This document shows positions 1-36,490 of a DNA stretch of 38,182 bases, in pieces (the first letter of the stretch is position 1; each line of letters begins with the position of its first letter). The stretch lies in NCBI GenBank assembly GCA_900768735.1, contig CAAGDZ010000015.1, forward strand, positions 1 to 38,182, written 5' to 3'. The notes under the pieces were generated by a model. That model worked only from the letters and a program-made list of their open reading frames with translations, was not told where the DNA came from and ran no database searches. This DNA comes from Oscillospiraceae bacterium (GTDB lineage Bacteria; Bacillota; Clostridia; Oscillospirales; Ruminococcaceae). The translations under genes were made by a program, and so were the position numbers.

Positions 1-1
1 A

Positions 2-376
2 ACCGTTATTAATAGCGCTATAGCCTCTACAGAACTTGAAAAGGGATTTAAGCTTGAGAAATCGCATATATTATATTTCCTTAAAAAATTCCAAACGGCA
101 GATTACACAGATAGAGAGGCGCAGAAAAGGCTTGTTCAGACATTCATCAATTCCATTTATGTATATGATGATACATTGACTATAAGCTATAACTATTCGG
201 ATAACGGAAATAGCAGGACCTTAACGCTTGACGATATGGCGCGTATTGCCGATATGCAAGAGTTAAATGTGTTCGACTGCCGCGCTCCTAAGTCCACCAG
301 AGCGCGCGCATACGAACATAGTATAATTTGCTACGGTTCCATATTCGCAGTAAAAATAAACCTCCGGGGAGAATAA
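2..376 (+). CDS. Large serine recombinase (integrase), C-terminal part; 5' end outside the window
   Basis: Frame 2 is open from base 2 to TAA at 374-376 and reads ...FQTADYTDREAQKRLVQTFINSIYVYDDTLTISYNYSD..., a C-terminal signature I recognise from Firmicutes large serine recombinases. It converges on the phage operon. The catalytic domain is not visible. Confidence 0.75.
   Translation, partial: TVINSAIASTELEKGFKLEKSHILYFLKKFQTADYTDREAQKRLVQTFINSIYVYDDTLTISYNYSDNGNSRTLTLDDMARIADMQELNVFDCRAPKSTRARAYEHSIICYGSIFAVKINLRGE
270..318. other. Candidate attP site (imperfect inverted repeat) inside the integrase 3' end
   Basis: TGTTCGACTGCCGCGCTC (270-287) and GAGCGCGCGCATACGAACA (300-318) form an imperfect inverted repeat around CTAAGTCCACCA. 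Confidence 0.45.
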
Positions 377-393
377 CTCTCGGAGGTTTATTT
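354..393. terminator. Bidirectional intrinsic terminator between the convergent integrase and accessory operon
   Basis: AAATAAACCTCCG...CGGAGGTTTATTT inverted repeat with A/T tails on both sides. Confidence 0.8.
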
Positions 394-442
394 CTTTCGT
401 GTGTAGCTCAGCGACGTTTGAATTGCTCAAAAGCTTATATAG

Positions 443-463
443 CCGCGCCCACAAGGGGCGCGG
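443..463 (-). other. DGR target-recognition hairpin downstream of VR2
   Basis: CCGCGCCC-ACAAG-GGGCGCGG (8-bp GC stem, 5-nt loop), identical to 9487-9507 and 24 nt from the VR2 end. Confidence 0.85.
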
Positions 464-468
464 ATTTT

Positions 469-1272
469 TTATAAGGATTTAGGAATACGGAAGCAGACGG
501 GCGCGGCAATGTTACCGTTGGAGGCGTAGTAGGTGGCGCAACTGCCGCCGGTGTGGACACCGCACCAAACCGAGGAGTTACCCGAATAAGGTGAGTCCGT
601 CCAGTACCATTCTGTTTCAGCACCGCCCATAATATCAGACCGTACTCGATTATGCACATCTTTGTAGTATTCAAGCTGCTCATATACTCCTTTATCACCA
701 AAGCATTTATCCGCAGGGAATATTTCGGAGGCGGCGGGTAAAAATAATAACTGGCCGCGGCTATATTTCTCACCGCTGCTTTTGATATGTAGTCTTTCGG
801 TAGAAATTATAAACTGCTTTAAATCCGGGTGAAGTCTTTCCAAAACTGAATTCAGAAAATCATCAACACCTGTATGCGGACCGCGCCAACCGAGGCAATC
901 CCGGCTTTCAAAGCGATAAGCTCCATTATCAACATCTGTAACAACCCATTCGACAGGCGTTGAGTCCTCAAGGGTGTTATAAATTATATCGCCTACTGAT
1001 AAAAAGAGGACCCCGCTTTTAATCTGCTCAATAACCGCCGGCCACGGGTTAGATATGTACTTATTGCCGTTGAAAGGAACCGTTGGGGTACATTCTGATT
1101 TATTTTCCGCCTGTATAGTAATTCCTGACATAGCGCACTCCATTTTTTCAATTTTACCAAGCGTTTCTACAAAAAGCTTGAAAGAGTCACGCACTACATC
1201 TTTGGCGCCCTCGGCCTCAAAAACTATGCGGTCGGAAACAGAGAAAGCTATTTTTAATTCGGAATTTGACAT
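469..1272 (-). CDS. DGR target protein 2 (remote target; C-type-lectin-like/DUF6273-like domain with C-terminal variable region)
   Basis: 267-aa ORF with an RBS. The C-terminus SPYSGNSSVWCGVHTGGSCATYYASNGNIAAPVCFRI is encoded by VR2. The core (NPW..VGD..LFLPAASEIF..QLEYY..WYWT) parallels target 1. Confidence 0.88.
   Translation of the reverse strand: MSNSELKIAFSVSDRIVFEAEGAKDVVRDSFKLFVETLGKIEKMECAMSGITIQAENKSECTPTVPFNGNKYISNPWPAVIEQIKSGVLFLSVGDIIYNTLEDSTPVEWVVTDVDNGAYRFESRDCLGWRGPHTGVDDFLNSVLERLHPDLKQFIISTERLHIKSSGEKYSRGQLLFLPAASEIFPADKCFGDKGVYEQLEYYKDVHNRVRSDIMGGAETEWYWTDSPYSGNSSVWCGVHTGGSCATYYASNGNIAAPVCFRIPKSL
488..595 (-). repeat. DGR variable repeat VR2
   Basis: Ungapped alignment to TR 8837-8944 over 108 nt with 15 mismatches, all at TR adenines (T on the plus strand). 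Confidence 0.95.
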
Positions 1273-1307: not shown

Positions 1308-1901
1308 TTATATGCCTAATTGATTGCAAGCCATGTAGAACCCTGTGGACCAAAGATACACCCTCGGGTGAATTCTTCTGCCGCAGCAATACAGCCACTC
1401 GTAGCTATCAGACATAATTTGCTCAATTACTCTTGATAAGCTTTCACTCGGAATAAAACTGTTTGACGTACTGTTGATTACCTCAGCCTCGATAAATTCC
1501 CACAATTCTTGTTCACTGCTAAACTCGTCGCTGCTTTTTAAATATTCATCAATGCAGTCTTTATCAAGGTAGCTTTTTATATCGGAAACTACATCATCAC
1601 TGTAATAGGTGTATATGTTGGACGCACACTGTATTTTTCCGATATAATAATCAACGTTATTATGAATAAAGCCTTTTATTTTTGCAGGAGTCAAGGGATT
1701 GTACCAAGTAGCTATTGAATCGCCTATATCTCCGCTTACGATTAAAGAGCCTCTTAACTTGTCAACAATATAATTGGCGTAGTAATCGCCGCTGCCGTCC
1801 TCTCTGCGCCAATCAATGATTGTGTACCTGTCGCTGTCTTGAATAAGTGTAGCCTTATGGTTTTTAAAAGCTTCCTCGTACTGATTTTTAATCTCGCTCA
1901 C
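1308..1901 (-). CDS. Hypothetical phage protein
   Basis: Part of ORF 1308..1988. The likely start is GTG at 1901, preceded by GGAGG and overlapping the upstream gene. Confidence 0.7.
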   Translation of the reverse strand: MSEIKNQYEEAFKNHKATLIQDSDRYTIIDWRREDGSGDYYANYIVDKLRGSLIVSGDIGDSIATWYNPLTPAKIKGFIHNNVDYYIGKIQCASNIYTYYSDDVVSDIKSYLDKDCIDEYLKSSDEFSSEQELWEFIEAEVINSTSNSFIPSESLSRVIEQIMSDSYEWLYCCGRRIHPRVYLWSTGFYMACNQLGI

Positions 1902-2226
1902 AGTATTCCTCCATTTTTGCTCCGCAGTTCGGGCAGTATTTAAAAATTTTTGATACTCCTGACCCCTTAAATTTGTATAATTTTCCACACACAGAACAAC
2001 TATACACCCTCACCCAATCACCCCATATATTCTTTTTTTTATTATGGAGCCATTCCCCATGGTTAACAGGTGCAACGTCGGCGGAGGGCTGTAAATAAAT
2101 AAGACTTTTGACAGACAGCAAGGCATCTCTATATCCATTTATATATCTGCTGTTATTTATGCTCTCAGTAGGTATAAGTTCATCTATCAGTTTTTTCAGC
2201 GTTTCAACGTCTTTATATTCAGCCAT
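1888..2226 (-). CDS. Hypothetical protein with C-terminal zinc ribbon (DVAPV..HGEW..CSVC..CPNCGAKM)
   Basis: Two CxxC pairs. ATG at 2226 with a GGAG RBS. Common accessory family in clostridial phages. Confidence 0.75.
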   Translation of the reverse strand: MAEYKDVETLKKLIDELIPTESINNSRYINGYRDALLSVKSLIYLQPSADVAPVNHGEWLHNKKKNIWGDWVRVYSCSVCGKLYKFKGSGVSKIFKYCPNCGAKMEEYCERD

Positions 2227-2590
2227 TTTTACTCCTATCCATTTTTGCTCCGCAGTTCGGGCAATAACTGAACCTGTAATCTTGTTCGTTTGAATGCGTA
2301 CATTCTCCGTTTTCAAAGAAATACCCATCTGGAAATAATCCAAATCCACAGATATTACATTGAACAAGCCCTTTATTACAAACCCAATTCCCGTGACGAA
2401 CAGGTGCAACGTCTGATTTTATAACGTCAAAACACGTCCTTAACCATTCGGTAACGTTTTTCAGTTCAAATGAACCGTATCCAATATGCCATGTATTATC
2501 TGCTGTGTCATAATATTCTATTGAATAATAGGGCTTATCAACATTACCATTAACAACAATTTTGGGGTCTATTGCTTTAATCTTATCCAT
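2219..2590 (-). CDS. Hypothetical protein with C-terminal zinc ribbon (paralogous C-terminus to 1888-2226)
   Basis: DVAPVRHGNW..CNIC..YCPNCGAKM; ATG at 2590 after AAAGGA. Confidence 0.75.
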   Translation of the reverse strand: MDKIKAIDPKIVVNGNVDKPYYSIEYYDTADNTWHIGYGSFELKNVTEWLRTCFDVIKSDVAPVRHGNWVCNKGLVQCNICGFGLFPDGYFFENGECTHSNEQDYRFSYCPNCGAKMDRSKNG

Positions 2591-2603
2591 TGAATTTCCT
2601 TTC

Positions 2604-3104
2604 TCAGCATTTATGCGTTTTGACATTTTTTCCCTCCGTCATTTCTTTTGCAAGATTATCAATAATTTCAGGAGTAAACTGATAAGCTTTGACAAATTCA
2701 CAATCGCCTGAATACGAGAAGTATGTTCTTGACGCCCTCTTTTTAAGCTCCTCTACATACTCCTCTATAGCTTCCGCTCTTATGTTATTGACCTGTTTTT
2801 GAGGTCCTTTTTGTACTTTTTCTGTAAGTTCCCTCAATATTTCAGCTGCACGGCGGAATGGGATCTCCCTTGGGTTATCAAGCGGGTCCTTTACATAATC
2901 GCCAATCATAAGTCCGTCACTGTGTTCTATCGCGTATGCCCCCGCCCGCATAGCGAGTTCTGTTTCTTCGTCGATTAAGATTACATTACTTGCAGTGAGA
3001 AAATCCGCTATAAAATCGTAAATAGCTACGGGGTTTTCGCCCCCTGTACCGTATGCCGCTATAGCATTTTTTATAAGCCAAGATAATTTTTGATTATCAG
3101 CCAT
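2604..3104 (-). CDS. Hypothetical phage protein
   Basis: 166-aa ORF, GGAGGG RBS, packed in the operon. Confidence 0.7.
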   Translation of the reverse strand: MADNQKLSWLIKNAIAAYGTGGENPVAIYDFIADFLTASNVILIDEETELAMRAGAYAIEHSDGLMIGDYVKDPLDNPREIPFRRAAEILRELTEKVQKGPQKQVNNIRAEAIEEYVEELKKRASRTYFSYSGDCEFVKAYQFTPEIIDNLAKEMTEGKNVKTHKC

Positions 3105-3109
3105 AATAT

Positions 3110-3412
3110 TTAACCCTCCTTTTTCTTAGTCACTTTTTCCAGTAGAACGCCGTTCATATCCCACAATCTGTCATTGTTCGTATTATTAACGCGTCCAAGT
3201 TCTGAAATTATTGTATCTTTTACGGCGATTTGGCTTTCAAGGGCGCTTATTTTTTCCTGTAAGGATTTTATTTCGTCGTCCTTAAAGCCGAGCAGCATAT
3301 CACTATGCCATTTCAGCTCTTTTTTCTCACCCTTGCTTGATAAGAAAATTACTAAAATAGCAATTATGCTGACAGCCATAATCGCCGCAGTCGTTTGCAT
3401 TTCAGGGGTCAT
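3110..3412 (-). CDS. Hypothetical membrane-anchored coiled-coil protein
   Basis: N-terminal hydrophobic helix (AAIMAVSIIAILVIFL) followed by a heptad-like segment. ATG at 3412 after GGAGG. Confidence 0.65.
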   Translation of the reverse strand: MTPEMQTTAAIMAVSIIAILVIFLSSKGEKKELKWHSDMLLGFKDDEIKSLQEKISALESQIAVKDTIISELGRVNNTNNDRLWDMNGVLLEKVTKKKEG

Positions 3413-3417
3413 TATTC

Positions 3418-3681
3418 TTAAGCCTCCTTTCTTCTGAACGCCCATACAGGGCAGCCCTTTTTAGGCTTTGACATCTCAAGCCACCAAGTATTACGCGGTC
3501 CCGCACCGGGGTCGTCATCATCAATCCCATATCCGTAACGAACATAAGCATTGGTTTTTTCGACCTCCTCAACACCGAGTTCTCTTTTCGCTATTTCGGT
3601 TGCCTCCTGCTCCGTGTAGCGCTCCTTGCTGACCGCTACCGGGTAATCTCCGGTAAACGCGTCATAATCAAATTTGCTCAT
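3418..3681 (-). CDS. Hypothetical phage protein
   Basis: 87-aa ORF with ATGA overlap with the upstream gene and an AGGAGG RBS. Confidence 0.7.
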   Translation of the reverse strand: MSKFDYDAFTGDYPVAVSKERYTEQEATEIAKRELGVEEVEKTNAYVRYGYGIDDDDPGAGPRNTWWLEMSKPKKGCPVWAFRRKEA

Positions 3682-4676
3682 TCTTTTAAGTCCTCCTTTT
3701 CAAGTTTTACTCCGATTTTATATTGCAGTTCCCGATAACCTAAACCGTTCTTAGGCTTAAAAACCCCGTCCACATACTCCCCGCCGCGCATGCAGTAATC
3801 GTACAATTTCGGGTGTGTTACAGCCATTCTTTGAAACCTATTAGGTTCTTTTTCCATGTGGACGCCGAATAAGCAGAACATACAGCCTGTCCGTTCTACG
3901 CCTGTATTGAAATACTCGCCGTTTTCGTTCTGTTTTATCTCCCCGTATATAGAGCAGTAGTCAAGATTATTTTCCACGATATAACGCAGTATGTCCTGAC
4001 TCGTCCAAAATCCGAGCGGTTTGCTCTGTGGGTGTTTGCCCTTGATAATGTTGCAGCCGGTTTTTTCATAGGTTCTCCGGCGCATAATGCTTTCATCTTG
4101 AACAATGCCTAAGAATGGCCGCCGCCCCGTTTCGCGTTGGTATTTATACATAGGGCGCTTTTTCATAACATCACAACATTTTTCGGAAAAATCAACATCA
4201 CCGTTTATAAGCGGTTTCCAACATTCGGGCAGTTTTCCCATTTTCCCGCGTTCATCACCATACAGTAGATAATTGCGGAACCGTTCGGATAAATTTCCAT
4301 GCCGCAGCTTTCGTATTTTTGCGGCGGTTTCCTTTGAGGGAAAAGGATAACCATATTTTTGCAGAACTTGAATAAAGCTCATTTCGGGTTTAATCTCTAC
4401 AATATTTTTCTGCCTGCGGACAAATTCAACGATTTCAGGATATTCCAACCCTGTGTTTACAAAAACAGCGGGTATATCTTCGCCAATCGTCTTACGGACT
4501 AAGTGTAGCAGTACCGTACTGTCCAAGCCGCCCGAAAAAGATATGTACGTTTCAAATTGCTTGTTAAAATCAACAATCCGCGTTTCAGTAAGATTAAGCT
4601 TTGCCTCATACGGCAAATTTTTTCTTTGCGCAAAAGCCCAGTCTTTTAGTTTTAAATCTACATCTTGAATATACAA
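3678..4676 (-). CDS. Phosphoadenosine phosphosulfate (PAPS) reductase family protein
   Basis: PP-loop SFSGGLDSTVL, NTGLEYPE, KCC and RTGCMFC cysteine motifs. TTG start after AGGAGG. Confidence 0.85.
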   Translation of the reverse strand: MYIQDVDLKLKDWAFAQRKNLPYEAKLNLTETRIVDFNKQFETYISFSGGLDSTVLLHLVRKTIGEDIPAVFVNTGLEYPEIVEFVRRQKNIVEIKPEMSFIQVLQKYGYPFPSKETAAKIRKLRHGNLSERFRNYLLYGDERGKMGKLPECWKPLINGDVDFSEKCCDVMKKRPMYKYQRETGRRPFLGIVQDESIMRRRTYEKTGCNIIKGKHPQSKPLGFWTSQDILRYIVENNLDYCSIYGEIKQNENGEYFNTGVERTGCMFCLFGVHMEKEPNRFQRMAVTHPKLYDYCMRGGEYVDGVFKPKNGLGYRELQYKIGVKLEKEDLKE

Positions 4677-4725
4677 ACAGCTAACCTCCTTTTATTTATA
4701 GCTAAATAAATTTAGCCTTGTTCTT

Positions 4726-4754
4726 AATATAGCATAAAAAATTATACTTGTCAA
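4726..4754 (-). promoter_or_regulatory. sigmaA promoter of the accessory operon, with a palindromic operator in the spacer
   Basis: Minus strand reads TTGACA-17nt-TATATT with an extended TG. The spacer palindrome AGCATAAAAAATTATACT (4731-4748) recurs at 28936-28953. Confidence 0.75.
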
Positions 4755-4819: not shown

Positions 4820-5075
4820 TTTGTAACAGTTACGCGCACGCGCGTATATACACCCGTAACAGGCGGAATAGAGAGAACAGGGAGTATATTTCTCTCTATT
4901 CTCTCTAATTTACCCTTTAATAGAGTTTTTTTGTAACATTGTAACACTATGTCAAAATCCCCTTTTGTAGTGCGTATTTGCTTATAATTTATCAGCCGTA
5001 ACATTTTGTAACTTTGTAACATTAGCAGACGTAACATTTTTTGAATGTTACGGCATTGTTACGCTAATGTTACAT
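4820..5075. repeat. GTAAC/GTTAC iteron-hairpin element, copy A
   Basis: 12 GTAAC/GTTAC pentamers and a GAATAGAGAGAA..TTCTCTCTATTC hairpin. Blocks 4905-4946, 4995-5021 and 5031-5062 are identical to copy C at a constant 31400-nt offset. Confidence 0.85.
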
Positions 5076-5085
5076 GATTTTGAGC

Positions 5086-5124
5086 ATAAAAAAATAACGG
5101 CGGTCTTATCCTGACCGCCGTTAT
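5086..5124 (-). terminator. Intrinsic terminator ending the lysis operon
   Basis: ATAACGGCGGTC..GACCGCCGTTAT stem followed by a T-run on the minus strand. Confidence 0.85.
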
Positions 5125-5130
5125 CGTTTA

Positions 5131-7374: not shown

Positions 7375-8547
7375 TTACCTCGTTTCTTTTTTTATTGCCC
7401 ATGGTTTATAGCCAAAAAGACTATAAAACAATTGGTCCATACTGTGGATTGAACGGTACGCATCGCGCGTTTTCATAGAACCGCGCCAAGACATATAGGA
7501 TTGTGATACCTGCTCAAGGGTCATTTCTCCTTTGTCGTACAGGCGCTTTTGTTTTTTAAGCTTTCGCCGCTCCCTGACTATTGCGCTATGGTCCGGCTTT
7601 TTAATAACCTTTCCTGTTTCGGTCAAAAAGTATTTGGTTTTCAAAAAGGTGAAACCGTGCGAAAGCTTAATGATTTGAGTTTTCTTAGGATTTACAATAA
7701 TGCCCCATTTTTCGTATTCTTCAAAAAGCTTTTTCAGAAAATATCTTGCTTCCTCTTTGGTACGAAAAATGTCATAGCCGTCGTCCATATAACGGTTATA
7801 GTATTTATGGCGCCATTGGTCTTTAATCGTGTGGTCGATTTGATTTGGAAAAGCTATTGCAAATATCTGACTGTCCTCAGGTCCGATATACAGCCCGCGT
7901 CCTTTGTCGGCGTCAGATTTATATGGATTAGAGGAGTGGACAAAACTTTTTGCAAGAGCATTAAGCTTGTTATCTTTAATGTAACGGTCGATATGTAAGC
8001 ATAATTTATCGTGAGGTATATTACCGAAATAGTTCTTGAAATCTATCACTACAATATACCCCTCATTACTGCCCGTTTCATTGTAATATCTATGTAGGTG
8101 AGTTTCGCACCTATCCGCAGAAAATGATACGCCTTTTCCTTTTAACGACGCGCCATTATCGTATATCAAATTGTGTGAAAGAATTGGAACGAGCGCATTA
8201 GTGCATACGGAGCGCCTTAATACACGGTCAGAATAGTGCAGACTATGAATATCGCGGCGTTTACCGCGTTCAATTATCGAAAAGGAATAATATCCCTTGC
8301 ACTGATACTTTCCGCTGTAAAGTTCTCTTGACTGCATAGCCGAATATTTAAGCATATTTGCCTCATATCGGGCAACAGAGGCTTTCCATAATACGCCTCT
8401 GCGCGACTCTAAATGTGCCTGTAACAGCGCACCCGGACTTGCGACAACATCAAAATTATCATATTGTGCAATTGCCTCGCGCCGTTTTTGTTCGCGTGCA
8501 GTTTTTCGGCGCCAATAACGGGCTTCGTGTCGTTCTTCAGATGTCAT
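7375..8547 (-). CDS. DGR reverse transcriptase
   Basis: ERGKRRDI, DRVL, IDFKNYFGNIPH, GLYIGPEDSQ (the SQ motif typical of DGR RTs), YNRYMDD, GFTFL. No maturase or endonuclease domain. Likely start MTSEER at 8547 (GAGGT RBS); the ORF extends to 8613. Confidence 0.95.
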   Translation of the reverse strand: MTSEERHEARYWRRKTAREQKRREAIAQYDNFDVVASPGALLQAHLESRRGVLWKASVARYEANMLKYSAMQSRELYSGKYQCKGYYSFSIIERGKRRDIHSLHYSDRVLRRSVCTNALVPILSHNLIYDNGASLKGKGVSFSADRCETHLHRYYNETGSNEGYIVVIDFKNYFGNIPHDKLCLHIDRYIKDNKLNALAKSFVHSSNPYKSDADKGRGLYIGPEDSQIFAIAFPNQIDHTIKDQWRHKYYNRYMDDGYDIFRTKEEARYFLKKLFEEYEKWGIIVNPKKTQIIKLSHGFTFLKTKYFLTETGKVIKKPDHSAIVRERRKLKKQKRLYDKGEMTLEQVSQSYMSWRGSMKTRDAYRSIHSMDQLFYSLFGYKPWAIKKETR

Positions 8548-8836
8548 ATAATTTATACCTCGCGGAGTGTTATTGTAGGGGCGCATTGTGTTCTCCTTTG
8601 CGATAATAGCCATGTAAACGGGTACTCGCCGGGGTTCCTCCGGCTCTATCGCCTATCCCCGCCCATGCAAGCAGCGTCCGGCTAATCGCGTCAAGAAAAG
8701 CGCCGTTATATGACAAGCGGCGCTGTATATATTTATCCTTTTCGGGACGGTTATCCTCTCCTTCCGTAAATAAAAAAAATAACGAGCTTGATTTCAGCTA
8801 TAAGCTTACTTTAAACTTGCAAGGCCGTTGGTATTT

Positions 8837-8970
8837 CGGAATCAGACGGGCGCGGCAATGTTACCGTTGGAGGCGTTGTTGTTGTTGCAATTGCCGTTGT
8901 TGTTGACATTGCACCAATTCGAGGAGTTACCCGAATAAGGTGAGAGCAACCACCAATTGTTACGGCTGCC
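8837..8970 (-). ncRNA. DGR template repeat (TR)
   Basis: Non-coding copy of the VRs between avd and RT. In the VR frame it has 15 AAC/AAT codons and 35 adenines, and ends GTC TGA TTC CG (IMH*-like) where both VRs read GTC TGC TTC CG. Confidence 0.95.
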
Positions 8971-9006: not shown

Positions 9007-9468
9007 TTATTGTCTTAGTAATTTGGTTTTGCGCTTGCACCCGCGTAAAAGTTCTTCCTCGCGGATCATCAAGGCAGTTATAAGCGCAATATGTTTATTT
9101 ATGCGGATTTTATTATTATACCTCGCGTCGGTTTTATCGACTACAAGTAATGTGTCTTTCCACAGGTCGTTTACCGCACTTTGCAGTCGTAAATAAATCG
9201 GGTCGAGATAATCAATAGCCGCCTGAAATAAATCTTTGCGCTGCATAACTTGTTCGGGAGTGTATGCGTATATCTTATTTGCTTTCACATAAGTATCAAT
9301 CATACACTGCATAAGGTTTATAATCGGGTAGGTATATATCATACGCTGCCGCTTCGGTATATTCTTTTCGTTCATGAGGAAAGAACGCAGTTCGTGTAGC
9401 AAGTCCTGACCTGTTTTGAAAAATTCCATATCAGATGTTTTTCTGAATCTTGCAAGAACATTACTCAT
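9007..9468 (-). CDS. avd: DGR accessory variability determinant (Avd)
   Basis: 153-aa basic helical protein between the target gene and TR (IPKRQR..Y..PI..KANKIY..R..L). ATG at 9468 with AGGAGG. Confidence 0.8.
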   Translation of the reverse strand: MSNVLARFRKTSDMEFFKTGQDLLHELRSFLMNEKNIPKRQRMIYTYPIINLMQCMIDTYVKANKIYAYTPEQVMQRKDLFQAAIDYLDPIYLRLQSAVNDLWKDTLLVVDKTDARYNNKIRINKHIALITALMIREEELLRGCKRKTKLLRQ

Positions 9469-9486
9469 ATAGTTTTTACCTCCTGA

Positions 9487-9507
9487 CCGCGCCCACAAGG
9501 GGCGCGG
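9487..9507 (-). other. DGR target-recognition hairpin downstream of VR1
   Basis: CCGCGCCC-ACAAG-GGGCGCGG, 19 nt from the VR1 end and identical to 443-463. Confidence 0.85.
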
Positions 9508-9519
9508 AACCTAAAAGAT

Positions 9520-10422
9520 TTATACACGGAAGCAGACGGGCGCGGCAAGGTAACCGTAGGAGGCGCTGCTGTTGTAGCAAAGGCCGTCGCCGTAGACAGC
9601 GCACCAACCCGAGGAGTCACCCGAATAAGGCGAGAGCAACCACCAATGGCCACGGCTGCCGTTTCTGAATTTAAGACGGTTCATATTTCCTGCGAAAAGA
9701 GGGTACTGCAAGCCTGAGCCGCCTGCCGAAAAGCCCTTGCCGCCCCATATAGGAGTACCGTACACCTCGCACTCGTCGGGGAGCCATAACTTACCGATAT
9801 TAGCCCAGCCCCATTGATTATCGTCGGTAAGCAAGCCAGACGCACTATATCTTTTTGGCAGTAAAAATCGCTTTTCGATAATAACGTTTTTAAGCGCCTC
9901 GGGTAAGTAATAATATACGCCGTCTGCGGTATAATCAACATCAACCGTTTCAGGATTTACAGCAGTTCCATTAGGTACGCTGCCCGATAACGAGTTGAGG
10001 TAAAGATAAAAGTCAGAAGCGAGCCACGGGTGATTTTGATTTGTGGTACCGTTGTTGTAGTTGACCTTATTTATGGGGTGCAGGGTAGGCCATAATTCTT
10101 TGCATATAAAGTCGATATGCGAGCCTACAGTAGTATCGCTGTAATACTTGTATGTGTTAATTCCCGCTATCTGCGCATTTAAGGTTACGCCGTTTGTGGT
10201 AGTAAAGGGGATATAATCTCCTACATGAATTCCTGTAAAATCCTCTGCGGATATACGAGCTTTTATCCAAGCCCACGGATTTCCGTTATAAGGAGCCGCC
10301 GCAATTTCATTCTCGAATTTTGTAGCAAGATTTTCACCTGCATAAACACGGTCCTGTCCTGCTCCTAAAAGCGAGTGCTGTTCTCCGCCATTAATCGTCA
10401 TACGATCAACATAAATAGCCAT
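9520..10422 (-). CDS. DGR target protein 1, putative receptor-binding tail protein (C-type-lectin-like/DUF6273-like)
   Basis: Last gene of the tail-fibre cluster. The C-terminus GSRGHWWLLSPYSGDSSGWCAVYGDGLCYNSSASYGYLAAPVCFRV is encoded by VR1. Confidence 0.9.
   Translation of the reverse strand: MAIYVDRMTINGGEQHSLLGAGQDRVYAGENLATKFENEIAAAPYNGNPWAWIKARISAEDFTGIHVGDYIPFTTTNGVTLNAQIAGINTYKYYSDTTVGSHIDFICKELWPTLHPINKVNYNNGTTNQNHPWLASDFYLYLNSLSGSVPNGTAVNPETVDVDYTADGVYYYLPEALKNVIIEKRFLLPKRYSASGLLTDDNQWGWANIGKLWLPDECEVYGTPIWGGKGFSAGGSGLQYPLFAGNMNRLKFRNGSRGHWWLLSPYSGDSSGWCAVYGDGLCYNSSASYGYLAAPVCFRV
9527..9660 (-). repeat. DGR variable repeat VR1
   Basis: Ungapped alignment to TR 8837-8970 over 134 nt with 22 mismatches, all at TR adenines. 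Confidence 0.97.
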
Positions 10423-10425
10423 TTT

Positions 10426-10947
10426 TTAAACCTCCGTATTCTTAATATTTATGCTTAATAACCCGTTGCTTATTGTAGCTGATACGGGTAATTGTGATAC
10501 GGGGATTTCCCCGTTATCGTTCAGACTTGCAACATATCCTGCTTGACCGATATTATCTTTTACAAGAATATCCTCCGCAGCTATGCCGCCGTTTGCTATG
10601 CCGCCGCCTGAGTTAAATACCGCAATTCTGCCCTCGGGAACGCCCGGCAGCTTATCGACTTTACCGCTTATGTCAGGTCCGAGCGGAATCCATTGAGCTG
10701 TACCCTCGTATTCGCCCCATGCATATTCTGAGCCGCTAATTTCCGTACCCTCTGTGCCTTTATACTTGACCGTGTATGTGTAACCGAGTTCCTTTTCCAC
10801 ATTATCAAGGTCTGCATAATAGTCAACCTGTCCTATATACCGCATACCTTTAGGAAATGCGGCAATTATCGTGTTGACATAAGCCATAGCGCGTTTATAC
10901 GCATTCTCTGCCATAACAATTGCGTATAAAACTGACTGCTGATCCAT
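10426..10947 (-). CDS. Putative tail-fibre/adaptor protein
   Basis: GMRYIGQV..L..GYTYTV..EYAW..WIPLG..GKVDK and GYVASLNDNGEIPVSQLP motifs common in phage tail fibres. Confidence 0.65.
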   Translation of the reverse strand: MDQQSVLYAIVMAENAYKRAMAYVNTIIAAFPKGMRYIGQVDYYADLDNVEKELGYTYTVKYKGTEGTEISGSEYAWGEYEGTAQWIPLGPDISGKVDKLPGVPEGRIAVFNSGGGIANGGIAAEDILVKDNIGQAGYVASLNDNGEIPVSQLPVSATISNGLLSINIKNTEV

Positions 10948-14638: not shown

Positions 14639-17600
14639 TTAAGCACCTCCATATTGGCGGCTAAGACCGTGAATCGCTCTTGCCAATGATTGAATATCAG
14701 CATCGGATAATTTAACTTTGAACTTACGCATAAAGTCAAGAATTTGCTTTAAAATATACGTTTGGTCCTCAAGCGTTTCATCTAAATCGTCCGATAATGC
14801 TAATGTGGCGGCGGGAGTATCGGCGGCAATCCTTGTCTTGTAAGGTGCCTCCGTACCTGCCGCCATAACAGGTATTGAAATACCGCTTGCCCGTTCAACG
14901 AATTCACCTATTGAGCGGAAACTTGACGCTATATCGGAAAGCCTATCAGCAATAAGCGTCAGCTGTGATATAGCTCTGTCCCCGTCTGCGTTTATATCGA
15001 GTGTAGCTGTATTTTCCGCCAACGTTTTATTGGTATCTTTTGCGATATTATTAACCGAGGCAATTATTCTTCGCTTGTTGGCGTCAAGACCTTCTGCAAG
15101 ACCTTCATCAAGAAATTCACCGGTTTTAGCCCATACTTTGGACGGGGAGTGAATACCGAAAACGTTGTTAAGCGTATTGGTAAGATTACTTGCGGCGTTA
15201 CTAACCCACGAGGTAAGACCATTCCACGCATTACTTATTCCCGTTTTCAATCCGTCAACAAGATTAGAGCCGACCGATAAAAACTCCGAGCCGCTTAAGG
15301 TCTGCTTTAAGCCGTCCCACAGATTTGATACCGTTGATGTGATATTATTCCATGCGGTACTTGCACCGGACTTAATTTCCTCCCATTTTTTGCTTACGGT
15401 TGTTGAAATATTGTTCCAACCAGTTTCCCAGTTCTTAGCAAAGCCTTTAACACCGTCAGAAACACCTTTTGATATGCTGTCCCATGTGTTGGAGGCAGTT
15501 TTAGAGATATTATCCCAAGTGTCTTTTGCAAATTTCGTTATGCTGTTCCAACCGGTTTCCCAGTTTTTAGCAAAACCTTTAACACCGTCAGAAACACCTT
15601 TTGATATGCTATTCCATGTGTCAGAGGCGGTTTTAGATATACTGTCCCATGTGTCTTTTGCGAAATCCGTTATATTATTCCAACCCGTTTCCCAGTTCTT
15701 CGCAAAAGACTCAACACCGTCCGATACGGTCTTTGAAATAGAGTCCCATGTTTCTGAAACAGTTTTAGTAATGCCGTTCCAAGCATCTGAAACTCCTGTA
15801 GTTATAGTTTCCCAACCGGTTTCAAAAAAGTCGCAAAGACCTGATATTGCGGAGTCGAAAAATTCTGTTATTGATTTCCAAGCGTCCGAAATTCCGTTGA
15901 ATAAACCCTGAATAACAAAATCGCCTATTTCCGCAAATACAGTTGACGGAGAATGGATACCGAATAGCTCTTTTACAGAATTTACAACAGGGTCTACTAC
16001 ATTTTCTTTCAGCCAATTACCGACATTTGCTAATGCGTCACCTATGCCCTCGAAAAATCCCGCAATACCGTCCCAGCCTATTGATTTGAATAAACCTGCT
16101 AACAAGTCGGCAATGCCGCCTATGAGTCCGGCAAGAATACTCGGTATTTCAGCTACTACCGATGCTAAAAGCCCCGTCAAATCGACTAATATTCCTGCTA
16201 AATCTGCATTTGCAAGAGCCTCACCGATTCCTCCTAAAAGCCCCTGAATCGTTTCCGCCCAATCTACGCTTGTAAGCAGTCCAAAAGCAAACCTAATAGC
16301 TCCGTCTAAAGTATTATATAGTAATTGTCCTAACTCCGCCCAGTCAATGCCACCGTTTCCCTCGCCGTCACCTATGAGCGCAGTTTTAATTGAGGTCATT
16401 ATACCTGCACCGACATTTTGCCAGTTAATAGTACCTATAAACTCCGACAGAAAAGCTACGGCGTTATTAAATCCGCTGATTAGCAACGCACCCATTTCCG
16501 ACCAATTTATAGTGCTGAATGTTTTATTTATGCCCGTTGCTAATTTCATACCAACATTGCCGAAATTGATTTGCTTATTAATTTCTGTAATCAGAGTAAC
16601 AATACTGTTAATACCTATACCTATATTTTCGCCTGCGGTTTCAAAATCTACCGAGTCAAAAATACTTTGTATTGCTTTTCCTATATCGGCTCCGATTTTG
16701 TCAAAATCCGTGTTCTTAAGAAATGAGTTTATGGCATATCCTATTTCGTTCAGACCTTTAGATACCATTTTTGCGGCGTTCTCTAAATTCAGTTTTTCAG
16801 AAAAACTGTTTACGAAAAGCGCTAATTTCTCTCCTACGGTTGCTCCGTCAAATTCGCTTACTATGCCATATATAAAGTTTATAAGCGCATTCCACGCATT
16901 TGCGAATGTTTCACCGACTAACGCCCAATCAATGCCTTTTATCCAAGACATTATTGCATTACCAAGACCGCTGCCTAATGCAAAAAAGTCATAGTTAGAA
17001 AGAAAAGTATTGGCTATATCAAATACAGCATTGAAACCGTCTGCAAGAGTAGCCCCCAATGCGCTCCAATCAACACCCGCGGTTAGCCCGTTTAATATGC
17101 TTGCAATATTTTTAGCCCATTCTACTCCTTTAGGGCGGAGGACATTATTTATCCAATCGTCGATTGCTTTTATGGCATTATTAATACCGGAGGCTATAGT
17201 TAAACCTATGTCTGCCCAATTCTTATTTTGTATATCGTCTTTGAGCTTGTCAAAAATCGTTTTAATAGAATCGGGTAAAATACTTTCAATAGGAACCTCT
17301 TCAAATAAATTGTCCGAGGCACCCGAACCGTTGCTTTTGCTTGAGCTACGTTTGTTAAGTTCGTCAAATCCGTAAACCTGTTGTTTTAGTTCCTCCGCGG
17401 AATCCGAGGCTTTATCAAGCGATTTTGCGTAAGAGTCTGTTTGCTTTTTTGCTACCGTAACAGTAGATTTTCCACCGAGCATAGCAAGGAACGCATTGAA
17501 ATATGTTATCGCTCTTGAAATAGCGTCCAAAACCGCAGTAATAAGCGGCTCAAGAGATTGTATAACTCCGCTTAAGGAAACCGCAAAATTTGCACCTATT

Positions 17601-27274: not shown

Positions 27275-27540
27275 GTGTGTAACAATTATTTTTCCGTAAC
27301 TTATGTAAAATAGGCAGATAGAGAGAATAGGGAGTATATTTACTCTCTATCTCTCTGTTTTACCTACTCTATAGACTTTTTTTGTAACTGTAACACTATA
27401 CAGCCTATAAACCGCATAACAATGCGGTTTTTTGTTCAAAAACAGGCGTAACATTTCTGTAACAATCAACGTTACAAATTTTTTCGGATTGAGCCGTAAT
27501 TTTTTGTAACGTTGATTGTAACATAACTTTGTAACGCATA
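27275..27540. repeat. GTAAC/GTTAC iteron-hairpin element, copy B (diverged)
   Basis: 10 GTAAC/GTTAC pentamers, an AGAGAGAATAGGGAGTA..TACTCTCTATCTCTCT hairpin, and a perfect 17-bp inverted repeat (27462-27478 / 27503-27519). Confidence 0.8.
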
Positions 27541-27589: not shown

Positions 27590-28360
27590 TTAGTCGTTTT
27601 TGATTTCATCTGCGAGTGCAGGGATAGCATTTGTAAGTGCATTAATGATTATTGACGCACGAGGCTCGCGGGGGAATATCCTGCCGTGCCTGTACCTGCA
27701 TATCTGAACACGGTCAAGCCCCACAAGCTGACCTATGGCGGCAGCCGACCAACCGTAACGATTTATAGCAGTATTGATATAATCAACTGCTTTTAACCCG
27801 TTTTCACGGTCCTGCGGGAATTTGCTTAAGTCAATACCGCCTCCGGTAACTGCACCGGGGATAACCTCGATTCCCGCCTTGCTCAACATCATTGTGACAT
27901 ACGGGAGCCGCTCATTACGGCAGCTTGCTATAATCTGCGCGGCTTTCATATAATCATCAACGGTTAAATTCCTCTGCGGTTCCGCAAAGCTGTCATCGTC
28001 ATTATCGGAGCGATATGCGCCCGTTCTGCGGATTGCGGGTAAAACCTCGCTTGTTATCCACCGCTTGAATTTCTTAGCGGAGGGCAGCTTGCTCGACAAG
28101 ATAAGGCTGTATAACCCGCTTTCGTTGATTATATTGGTTTTACTCTGTCCGATAGGCACATTCCCATTTTGGGAATCTGCTATGTCAAGCATAACAAACT
28201 GTTTATCCTCAGGCTCAACGTGAGTAGATACCGCCTTACTACTGTTGCTATACCCCAAAGCATTTGCAACATCTTTTCCTACGAACCACGTTACCTCATC
28301 AATGTCGATTGTGCGGACGCGCCCGAATTCGGGATTTGTAAATGTAATAACCTCATTCAT
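27590..28360 (-). CDS. Bro-N domain antirepressor with C-terminal HTH
   Basis: FTNPEFGRVRT..WFVGKDVA.ALGY..INESGLYSLILSSKLPSAKKFKRWITSEVLPAIR; C-terminal Xre-like helix-turn-helix. Confidence 0.9.
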   Translation of the reverse strand: MNEVITFTNPEFGRVRTIDIDEVTWFVGKDVANALGYSNSSKAVSTHVEPEDKQFVMLDIADSQNGNVPIGQSKTNIINESGLYSLILSSKLPSAKKFKRWITSEVLPAIRRTGAYRSDNDDDSFAEPQRNLTVDDYMKAAQIIASCRNERLPYVTMMLSKAGIEVIPGAVTGGGIDLSKFPQDRENGLKAVDYINTAINRYGWSAAAIGQLVGLDRVQICRYRHGRIFPREPRASIIINALTNAIPALADEIKND

Positions 28361-28518
28361 GCCGCCTGCACCTCCTTGATTAATTCGGTAAGCATGCGGA
28401 TAGCCTCGAACAAATCCGCGTAAATCTCGGACGGCATACCGCCGTTTTCTGCGCTCTCCTGACCTAACAGCGCCAAGCTGTCAATAATGCGCTTTACATC
28501 TGCTGTTGTGTGTACCAT
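28357..28518 (-). CDS. Small hypothetical protein coupled to the antirepressor
   Basis: 53 aa, AGGAGG RBS, ATGA overlap with the Bro-N gene. Confidence 0.65.
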   Translation of the reverse strand: MVHTTADVKRIIDSLALLGQESAENGGMPSEIYADLFEAIRMLTELIKEVQAA

Positions 28519-28550
28519 AGATTGTTTTCCTCCTAAAATTATAAAAATCC

Positions 28551-28579
28551 TTGACAAAGAAACCAATCTAATGTATAAT
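28551..28579 (+). promoter_or_regulatory. Consensus sigmaA promoter firing antisense to the RHH-antirepressor operon
   Basis: TTGACA-17nt-TATAAT. Confidence 0.8.
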
Positions 28580-28585
28580 AGATTT

Positions 28586-28660
28586 TAGATAAGGTTTTCC
28601 TTGTCTTAATGATTTACGGTAACTGTACGATCTTGCAAGTTAGTAGCAGTTGCCGTTTTT
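28586..28660 (+). ncRNA. Putative ~75-nt antisense RNA
   Basis: Lies between the consensus promoter and a terminator hairpin ACGGTAACTG..CAGTTGCCGT-TTTT; no ORF. Confidence 0.6.
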
Positions 28661-28839
28661 CATTGTTGGCTTATTTCGGCATATTGCTTTTCAATACCGT
28701 CACGGATTATTTGAGCTTTTGTTTTATTTAATTTTTCACAAAGAAAATTTAATTTTTTCTTTGTGTTTTCGTCCATGCGAAATTTCAGCTCATAATCTTT
28801 AGGTGTATCGGTAAGCTTTGTGCCTTTATGAATACCCAC
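28660..28839 (-). CDS. Ribbon-helix-helix (Arc/CopG-like) transcriptional regulator
   Basis: 59 aa from a GTG start with an AAGGGGG RBS; PKDYELKFRMD..KKL..LC..KTKAQIIRDGI. Confidence 0.75.
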   Translation of the reverse strand: MGIHKGTKLTDTPKDYELKFRMDENTKKKLNFLCEKLNKTKAQIIRDGIEKQYAEISQQ

Positions 28840-28873
28840 ATTTACACCCCCTTTTCTTTTCGGGTACAAACAA

Positions 28874-28959
28874 ATTATAGCATACCCACAAAGAAAAGTC
28901 AATAGGTTTTCAAAAAGTTAAAAAAATTATATTATAGCATAAATTTTTATACTTGTCAA
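28874..28959 (-). promoter_or_regulatory. Tandem sigmaA promoters for the RHH-antirepressor operon
   Basis: TTGACA-17-TATAAT (28931-28959) and TTGACT-17-TATAAT (28874-28902), both with an extended TG. TACCCACA is repeated at 28833 and 28883. Confidence 0.8.
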
Positions 28960-28983
28960 TGGTTATGGTAAAATATATTTGAC

Positions 28984-29043
28984 TAAATAGGCATAACAAA
29001 AGCGTGATAGTTTAATTTATCACGCTTTTATTATGCCTATTTA
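28984..29043. terminator. Long inverted repeat terminating the lipoprotein moron
   Basis: TAAATAGGCATAA-C-AAAAGCGTGATA..TATCACGCTTTT-A-TTATGCCTATTTA. Confidence 0.75.
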
Positions 29044-36219: not shown

Positions 36220-36490
36220 TGTTACATTCACGCGCACGCGCGTATTATGTACCCGCATCAGGCGGAATAGGGAGTATAAATACTCTCTGTTCTCTCTATT
36301 CTCACTAATTTACCCTTTAATAGAGTTTTTTTGTAACATTGTAACATTTTATTAGAATTGCCGCATTTTATAAGGCTTTGCGGCTATTTTGTCTGCCGTA
36401 ACATTTTGTAACTTTGTAACACCTGCAAATGTAACATTTTTTGAATGTTACGGCATTGTTACAGCATTGTTACGCCATTTGTAACGGCAA
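36220..36490. repeat. GTAAC/GTTAC iteron-hairpin element, copy C (candidate replication origin)
   Basis: 11 GTAAC/GTTAC pentamers and a GGGAGTAT..ATACTCTC hairpin, directly downstream of the primase-helicase gene. Confidence 0.85.

Follow-up and report, generated by a model that had tools for sequence, protein, structure and literature searches.

The remote second target of a phage DGR is probably a non-virion protein encoded in a putative early operon

Phage DGRs are usually seen as host-range devices acting on tail proteins. The phage described here carries a second candidate target gene, T2, far from its tail genes, and raises three questions: is T2 a genuine DGR target, is its product part of the virion, and, if not, what might it bind? 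The window—the whole stretch of DNA analysed, 38,182 nucleotides long—is contig C15 of a 2.3 Mb genome in 497 contigs, and its minus strand holds most of one temperate phage of gut type. The phage genes include a primase-helicase, an SNF2 helicase, terminases, portal, capsid, a 1470-aa tape measure and tail genes; the window also contains the DGR, lysis genes, an accessory operon, and the 3' end of an integrase. A second contig, C322, encodes homologs of a repressor, an exonuclease, SSB and DNA polymerase. We assign C322 to the same phage, as a probable further part, from its synteny with related phages and a shared promoter motif; the two contigs have no overlap. The DGR features of the window are as follows.

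7375..8613, minus strand: DGR reverse transcriptase (RT), with RVT_1 and phrog_1423 matches
8837..8970, minus strand: template repeat (TR), located by repeat comparison
9007..9498, minus strand: Avd-like accessory gene, named by position, with homologs at the same place in seven loci
9487..9507, minus strand: GC hairpin after VR1, 21 nt
9520..10422, minus strand: DGR target 1 (T1), a 300-aa DUF6273 protein whose gene ends the tail module, with VR1 at 9527-9660
469..1272, minus strand: DGR target 2 (T2), 267 aa, DUF6273, with RBS GGAGG
488..595, minus strand: VR2, with 15/15 mismatches to TR at adenines
443..463, minus strand: GC hairpin after VR2, 21 nt, identical to the hairpin after VR1

A 134-nt repeat is present in three copies (starts 488, 8837 and 9527). 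VR1 differs from TR at 22 positions, every one a TR adenine. The corresponding comparison for VR2 covers 108 nt (488-595 against TR 8837-8944, which contains 30 adenines); again, all 15 mismatches fall at TR adenines (hypergeometric p 1.8e-10, with boundaries picked by eye after inspection), and non-A mismatches are confined to the sequence 5' of this stretch. Hairpins of about -12 kcal/mol (as DNA) follow VR1 and VR2, while none is found 3' of TR (-2.2). By analogy with other DGRs, we take the hairpin at 443..463 to be a target-recognition hairpin. The RT reading frame (412 aa) is open, and the Avd-like gene has no Pfam or PHROG match.

Close relatives of T2 are also diversified. Its 90% identity cluster has four members carrying four different VR2 alleles; comparing the three relatives with T2 gives 15 variable positions within residues 232-255, and at 14 of these the TR codon has A as its first or second base. 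The gene at 469-1272 is a true remote DGR target: the differences between TR and VR2 are at adenines only, the hairpin is shared with VR1, RT, TR and accessory gene lie in the same element, the protein ends in a C-type lectin fold, and its close relatives are diversified. A single RT/Avd/TR cassette rewrites two hairpin-bearing genes, those of the tail-tip protein T1—a close relative of which is recorded from an Acutalibacteraceae bacterium—and the remote T2. A search of the same genome for a third DGR target found none.

T2 is predicted to be a soluble C-type-lectin-fold binder with a small, swappable N-terminal domain. Structure prediction, as proposed in an earlier, sequence-only reading of this DNA, was run for T2, and the model (pLDDT 88.7) consists of (i) a beta-beta-alpha domain at residues 6-48, (ii) a flexible linker at 50-61, and (iii) a DUF6273 C-type lectin domain ending in VR2; the Pfam match to DUF6273 is at the cut-off. 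The best fold matches are 9qa6, an IgA peptidase domain (Z 15.0, rmsd 2.1 over 163 residues), Lcl of Legionella (Z 8.7), TvpA (Z 8.0) and Mtd (Z 5.4). Foldseek against the PDB gave one match at E < 0.001, and tail proteins are among the structural neighbours in BFVD. That reading had given T1 and T2 a common lectin-like core and T2 no transmembrane (TM) helix, and both statements hold: both proteins contain DUF6273 and are 40% identical over their last 91 aa (further upstream the match is weak, E 0.04), and the 19-residue hydropathy maximum of T2 is 1.37, with values above 1.8 in none of 93 homologs. Charged residues are more frequent in the T2 family than in the T1 family (0.28 versus 0.16), but portal and tail tube are high too, and the measure was dropped as a test of location.

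The N-terminus, for which a homolog search had been suggested, yielded little: it belongs to no Pfam or PHROG family, has no usable Atlas match, and finds P0001-P0003 as its only BLAST relatives. In 62 sequences the core is preceded by 35 residues or more, and BLAST sorts these N-termini into 10 classes; that of T2 has four members. Its likeness to a 21-member class is weak (hhalign P 0.022, probability 2%), so dimerisation of T2 is only a guess. Translation could also start from an in-frame ATG at window position 1131, which has a GGAG motif; the 220-aa product would lack the N-terminal domain and match stand-alone homologs like Shimadzu orf43 in size, and the domain may be a fused upstream gene.

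The surroundings of T2 bear on when it would be made. The features of the accessory operon and its borders are listed in the direction of its transcription.

5093..5125, minus strand: intrinsic terminator after the endolysin gene, a terminator-like stem
4726..4754, minus strand: sigma-70-type promoter of the operon, a near copy of the early promoter on C322 (about 258-286)
4731..4748, no strand: operator-like imperfect palindrome, 18 bp, between -35 and -10
4700..4717, no strand: second operator-like palindrome, just downstream of the promoter
3678..4676, minus strand: PAPS-reductase-family protein, first operon gene (PF01507, E 4.8e-20)
3418..3681, minus strand: operon gene with a PHROG match (phrog_13489)
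3110..3412, minus strand: operon gene with a hydrophobic N-terminus and no family
2604..3104, minus strand: operon gene with no Pfam or PHROG family
2219..2626, minus strand: zinc-ribbon protein, by CxxC pairs and a weak Pfam match
1888..2226, minus strand: zinc-ribbon protein, paralog of the preceding one, on the same grounds
1308..1901, minus strand: operon gene with a PHROG match (phrog_5051)
354..393, no strand: long inverted repeat between T2 and the convergent integrase gene, flagged on the plus strand, with two-way use inferred from sequence
2..376, plus strand: 3' end of a large integrase gene that runs off the contig (it matches a member of neighbour family F1, the phrog_95 integrase, at E 3e-29)

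T2 had been placed beyond the lysis terminator (then put at 5086-5124), at the end of an operon with its own promoter and a PAPS-reductase-family gene. Each of these points stands. Eight co-oriented genes with RBSs run from 4676 to 469, with T2 last and the convergent integrase 3' end next; the inverted repeat at 354..393 is likely the terminator that closes the operon, and two weak terminator-like matches lie inside it (3386-3359 and 2404-2390). The zinc-ribbon proteins are a partial case: the CxxC pairs are present, but Pfam supports them weakly (E 0.007-0.03). The ends of this gene pair (window 1888-2626) are near-identical, 29 nt at 97% and 42 nt at 76%, marking a tandem duplication. At the other border, T2 abuts the integrase 3' end within window 1-470, while some related loci (e.g., L044, L109 and L125) have no integrase after the homolog; the contig may perhaps be the excised form, with an attachment site near window 1-470.

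The operon promoter (4754-4726) matches 11/12 consensus positions, has the TG element, and ranks first among 29 sites, where chance alone would give 24.8. It differs at 4 of 29 positions from the early-promoter 29-mer beside the repressor gene on C322. Elsewhere in the 2.3 Mb genome, that 29-mer recurs with up to four mismatches at two sites only: 4755, before the T2 operon, and 28960, in the antirepressor cassette (the next-best sites, on other contigs, have 6, 6 and 7 mismatches). All three promoter copies hold the 18-bp imperfect palindrome between -35 and -10, and second copies of it lie at window 4700 and C322 296; these sites make up five of the eight genome matches to a pattern that was itself derived from them. 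Eight related loci contain both a repressor gene and a T2 homolog. In seven, the homolog has its own early-promoter copy upstream (3-8 mismatches, versus 10-13 in shuffles); the eighth offers just 249 nt of upstream sequence. The T2 operon thus has the look of a repressor-controlled early operon moved away from its usual place, and an early-promoter copy with operator-like repeats implies that it should be off in the lysogen and on early after induction or infection. We infer from these sequence features that T2 would be silent in the lysogen and produced early in the lytic cycle.

Is this placement peculiar to one phage? Scanning viral contigs with the T2 protein alone returned 0 loci; scanning with an 88-row alignment returned 147. 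A target ORF was called in 144 of these; at 85% identity they fall into 44 clusters. One locus per cluster was mapped with a simple ORF caller and PHROGs, and classed by hand reading of the gene maps: 23 clusters lie in early or replication operons, 12 are post-lysis or integrase-adjacent, 6 are partial prophage ends, and 3 are unclassifiable. Arrangements in replication operons include SSB-homolog-DNA polymerase, homolog-Erf-SSB, and antirepressor-homolog-ParB. In none of the 44 clusters is the next neighbour an annotated structural gene, many neighbours being unannotated. One 'tail' match, 2 kb upstream of the homolog in L068, was set aside because it looks repeat-driven; we take the C-terminus of that protein to resemble DUF4942 proteins. 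Together with the promoter copy, the homologs in replication operons point to expression outside the late programme, as had been proposed.

Remote targeting is also widespread in the family. An RT is in view in 10 of the 147 loci; a TR was found in seven of these, with no non-A mismatch in six and three in one. For the more distant cases, an RT match was obtained in 25 of 36 records, and 22 of these 25 homolog/RT pairs show remote, A-specific targeting (0-2 non-A versus 11-20 adenine mismatches). The three failures are L036 (with a fragmentary RT), L060 and L062. Early or replication operons house 18 of the 22 remotely targeted homologs, including seven from a single cluster, and 17 of the 22 RT loci have a VR beside the cassette as well. 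Targeting persists between phages that share 33-51% identity. The largest cluster comprises 55 distinct sequences with 48 distinct VR peptides, and none of its invariant VR columns is an A. Two kinds of exception were seen. Firstly, five RT matches (L157, L163, L164, L166 and L167) contain one in-frame stop while their TR-VR pairs are still nearly A-specific; these may be recently broken or recoded DGRs. Secondly, some homologs lack a matching TR or have decayed VR ends (L060 9842-10654, L062 9767-10567, P0090 and P0093, one type being NADAR-fused), and are possibly fixed derivatives in which diversification has ended.

T2 and T1 homologs also differ in their fusions, which suggest cytoplasmic partners for the former and tail-type partners for the latter. 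Extra named domains occur in 4 of 35 T2 homologs scanned (dGTP_diPhyd_N, MazE/AbrB, and NADAR twice), a DUF6378 fusion in 1 of 66 profile matches scanned, and a DUF4406 fusion in one Atlas cluster; since most N-terminal domains have no family, the argument stands on these few proteins. Three distant matches among the 66 carry tail-collar, Ig or N-methyl domains (the tail-collar fusion being P0376, E 1e-21). Among 29 T1 homologs chosen for length, 7 have tail-tip, collagen, BppU_N or CBM domains and 1 more has DUF2460 only. A search of 913 candidates for longer fused T2 forms (469-2000 aa) found none, which is weak evidence; those long proteins that the profile search returned carry DUF6273 in several repeats. 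In a quick tree built from 60 rows without their VR, T2-like and T1-like rows separate (SH-aLRT 100). The rows were drawn from searches started with one or the other target (every third T2 match and three fusions; every fifth T1 match), so what is informative is the placement of two proteins of Roseburia phage Shimadzu: orf43 groups with T2 and the tail fibre with T1, both on long branches.

Core and VR differ in pN/pS. Core pN/pS is 0.18 (52 sequences) and 0.06 (20 sequences), indicating purifying selection, and VR pN/pS is 3.3 and 50, respectively; no internal stops occur in 54 and 20 distinct sequences. VR residues are skewed (Tyr 98 observed versus 71 expected, Cys 4 versus 37, Pro 0 versus 9), with the caveat that the sequences are non-independent and RT bias is possible.

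The sequence-only reading had regarded a diversified cytoplasmic phage effector as poorly described, and this overstates the novelty. A tblastn search of 50,697 annotated phage records with T2 has a sole match, Shimadzu orf43 (LR596903.1), a direct homolog (34.5% over residues 77-263, E 8e-19) already published as a second target. The accessible text of Cornuault et al. (10.1101/575076) describes orf43 as a VR2 target mutated by the DGR, its function not known, and reports DGR mutation in 2% of virion reads; in mice, VR2 alleles were less strongly selected than VR1 alleles and the authors judged the gene less essential. Like that of T2, the Shimadzu TR-VR2 pair has no non-A difference among 15 mismatches, and orf43 occupies a non-structural position, between a DNA methyltransferase gene and Erf. 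T2 resembles it in core homology outside the VR and in its site outside the structural module, in an early-type operon. The two differ in that Orf43 (209 aa) lacks the N-terminal domain of T2, and in that orf43 belongs to the main early operon of a myovirus while T2 sits in a post-lysis operon with its own early-promoter copy; the T2 type is common to that myovirus and the present long-tape-measure phage. The arrangement itself is therefore already in print, and T2 adds another case.

Other reports, as far as their accessible parts go, describe comparable genes. The second target of Quimbyvirus was proposed to be non-structural and tied to phage-host conflict (Benler et al. 2021, PMC8008677); by its description it is, like T2, a C-type lectin target remote from the structural module, but it belongs to a Bacteroidota phage, on the opposite strand, in a methyltransferase-rich island. 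In four induced gut prophage species, a second VR lies far from the RT and close to counter-defence genes (Dahlman et al. 2025, PMC12629997); by description, the distance from the RT is common to these and T2. Many phage targets are non-adjacent, within 50 kb (PMC5758913), while viral targets are mostly structural (10.1101/2020.04.01.020958; PMC12636319). Toutatisvirus, Lelie/CP11 and nd4/nd12 have two DUF6273 targets per DGR, one of them small, as here (nd12_tgt2 has an extra DUF3310-like N-terminus); no Toutatis record appears in the T2 tblastn search at E 0.01. Such small second targets have been taken as receptor-binding (PMC10743442; 10.1101/2024.10.15.618418) or left undecided as to function (PMC11792537), and the accessible text of PMC12694917 and PMC11661182 has nothing further on them. 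The literature searched, mostly outside subscription journals, yielded no report of second targets controlled by early promoters or looked for in virion proteomes; among the details of the T2 arrangement, the promoter copy alone had no published counterpart that we could find.

The promoter, the homologs in replication operons and the cytoplasmic fusions support the non-structural role first proposed for T2, and we consider it very probable that T2 is a non-virion protein. As to its function, our best guess, put forward tentatively, is an intracellular anti-defence binder. The T2 operon would be kept off in the lysogen through putative repressor control and switched on early in the lytic cycle; each phage lineage would present a different T2 binding surface; and T2 would bind and block a host protein inside the cell, with a variable anti-phage defence component as the most plausible candidate. 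Several points count against a role in defence: the neighbours are generic early genes rather than a clear anti-defence island, PADLOC finds no match in T2, selection on Shimadzu VR2 was weaker than on VR1 according to the accessible text (10.1101/575076), and similar DUF6273 genes have been called receptor-binding, as cited above. The fuller version—an old, dedicated lineage of DGR targets, apart from the tail adhesins, wired to the early lytic switch and acting as an antibody-like intracellular inhibitor of a fast-changing defence protein—is possible, but more doubtful still.

The same early-promoter and operon evidence would fit an early cytoplasmic hypervariable binder of an ordinary host protein or metabolite (in replication, transcription or nucleotide metabolism) that tunes takeover across strains. 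Homologs between SSB and DNA polymerase or beside Erf/SSB, and fusions to nucleotide-handling domains, agree with this; but housekeeping targets presumably change slowly and would not call for constant diversification, and the 48 VR peptides of the largest cluster sit poorly with such a ligand. We regard it as unlikely. Less likely again is a non-virion protein at or outside the envelope, either a receptor mask (superinfection exclusion) or a decoy released on lysis. The nearest solved folds are indeed surface proteins (the IgA peptidase domain, Lcl and TvpA), and since VR1 and VR2 derive from one template they could reach similar surfaces; however, T2 and the 93 homologs have no TM or hydrophobic signal, and control by a repressor would keep the promoter shut in a lysogen.

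T2 might also be a weakly selected bystander, a folded accessory protein mutated because its hairpin is kept and gaining little from diversification. The weak selection of Shimadzu VR2 alleles in the accessible text (10.1101/575076) and the homologs without a matching TR (L060 and L062) are what such a protein would lead one to expect, but purifying selection on the core, the skewed VR residues (Tyr up, Cys and Pro down, within the caveat given above) and targeting retained between divergent phages make this improbable. An alternative receptor-binding subunit or virion decoration, as the earlier reading had allowed and loaded, for example, via the 173-aa protein at 10426-10947, seems to us the least probable: it would explain the fold shared with T1, the tail proteins in BFVD, the P0376 fusion and the receptor-binding interpretation of similar genes in the accessible parts of PMC10743442 and 10.1101/2024.10.15.618418, but T2 is encoded outside the late tail module behind an early-type promoter, groups apart from tail targets, has homologs with no annotated structural next neighbour in 44 clusters and, with at least 10 unrelated N-terminal classes in the family, probably no conserved docking domain.

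A widespread, early, intracellular second class of targets would extend the reach of phage DGRs to intracellular conflict. T2 yields a concrete prediction—repressor-controlled, early and non-virion—and the culturable homolog, Shimadzu orf43, is a place where it can be tested.

Three further observations concern the phage at large. A GTAAC/GTTAC-rich repeat occurs three times, after the endolysin gene (window 4860-5080), after the antirepressor gene (27300-27520), and after the primase-helicase gene (36270-36480); two copies are 81% identical over 191 nt, and the repeat may be an origin-like or regulatory element. The interval between terminase and portal genes (27590-29043) holds a cassette with a long inverted repeat, a small repressor-like gene, the antirepressor gene and the third early-promoter copy (28959-28931). 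Finally, the tape measure gene contains three tandem 132-nt repeats at 15412-15807.
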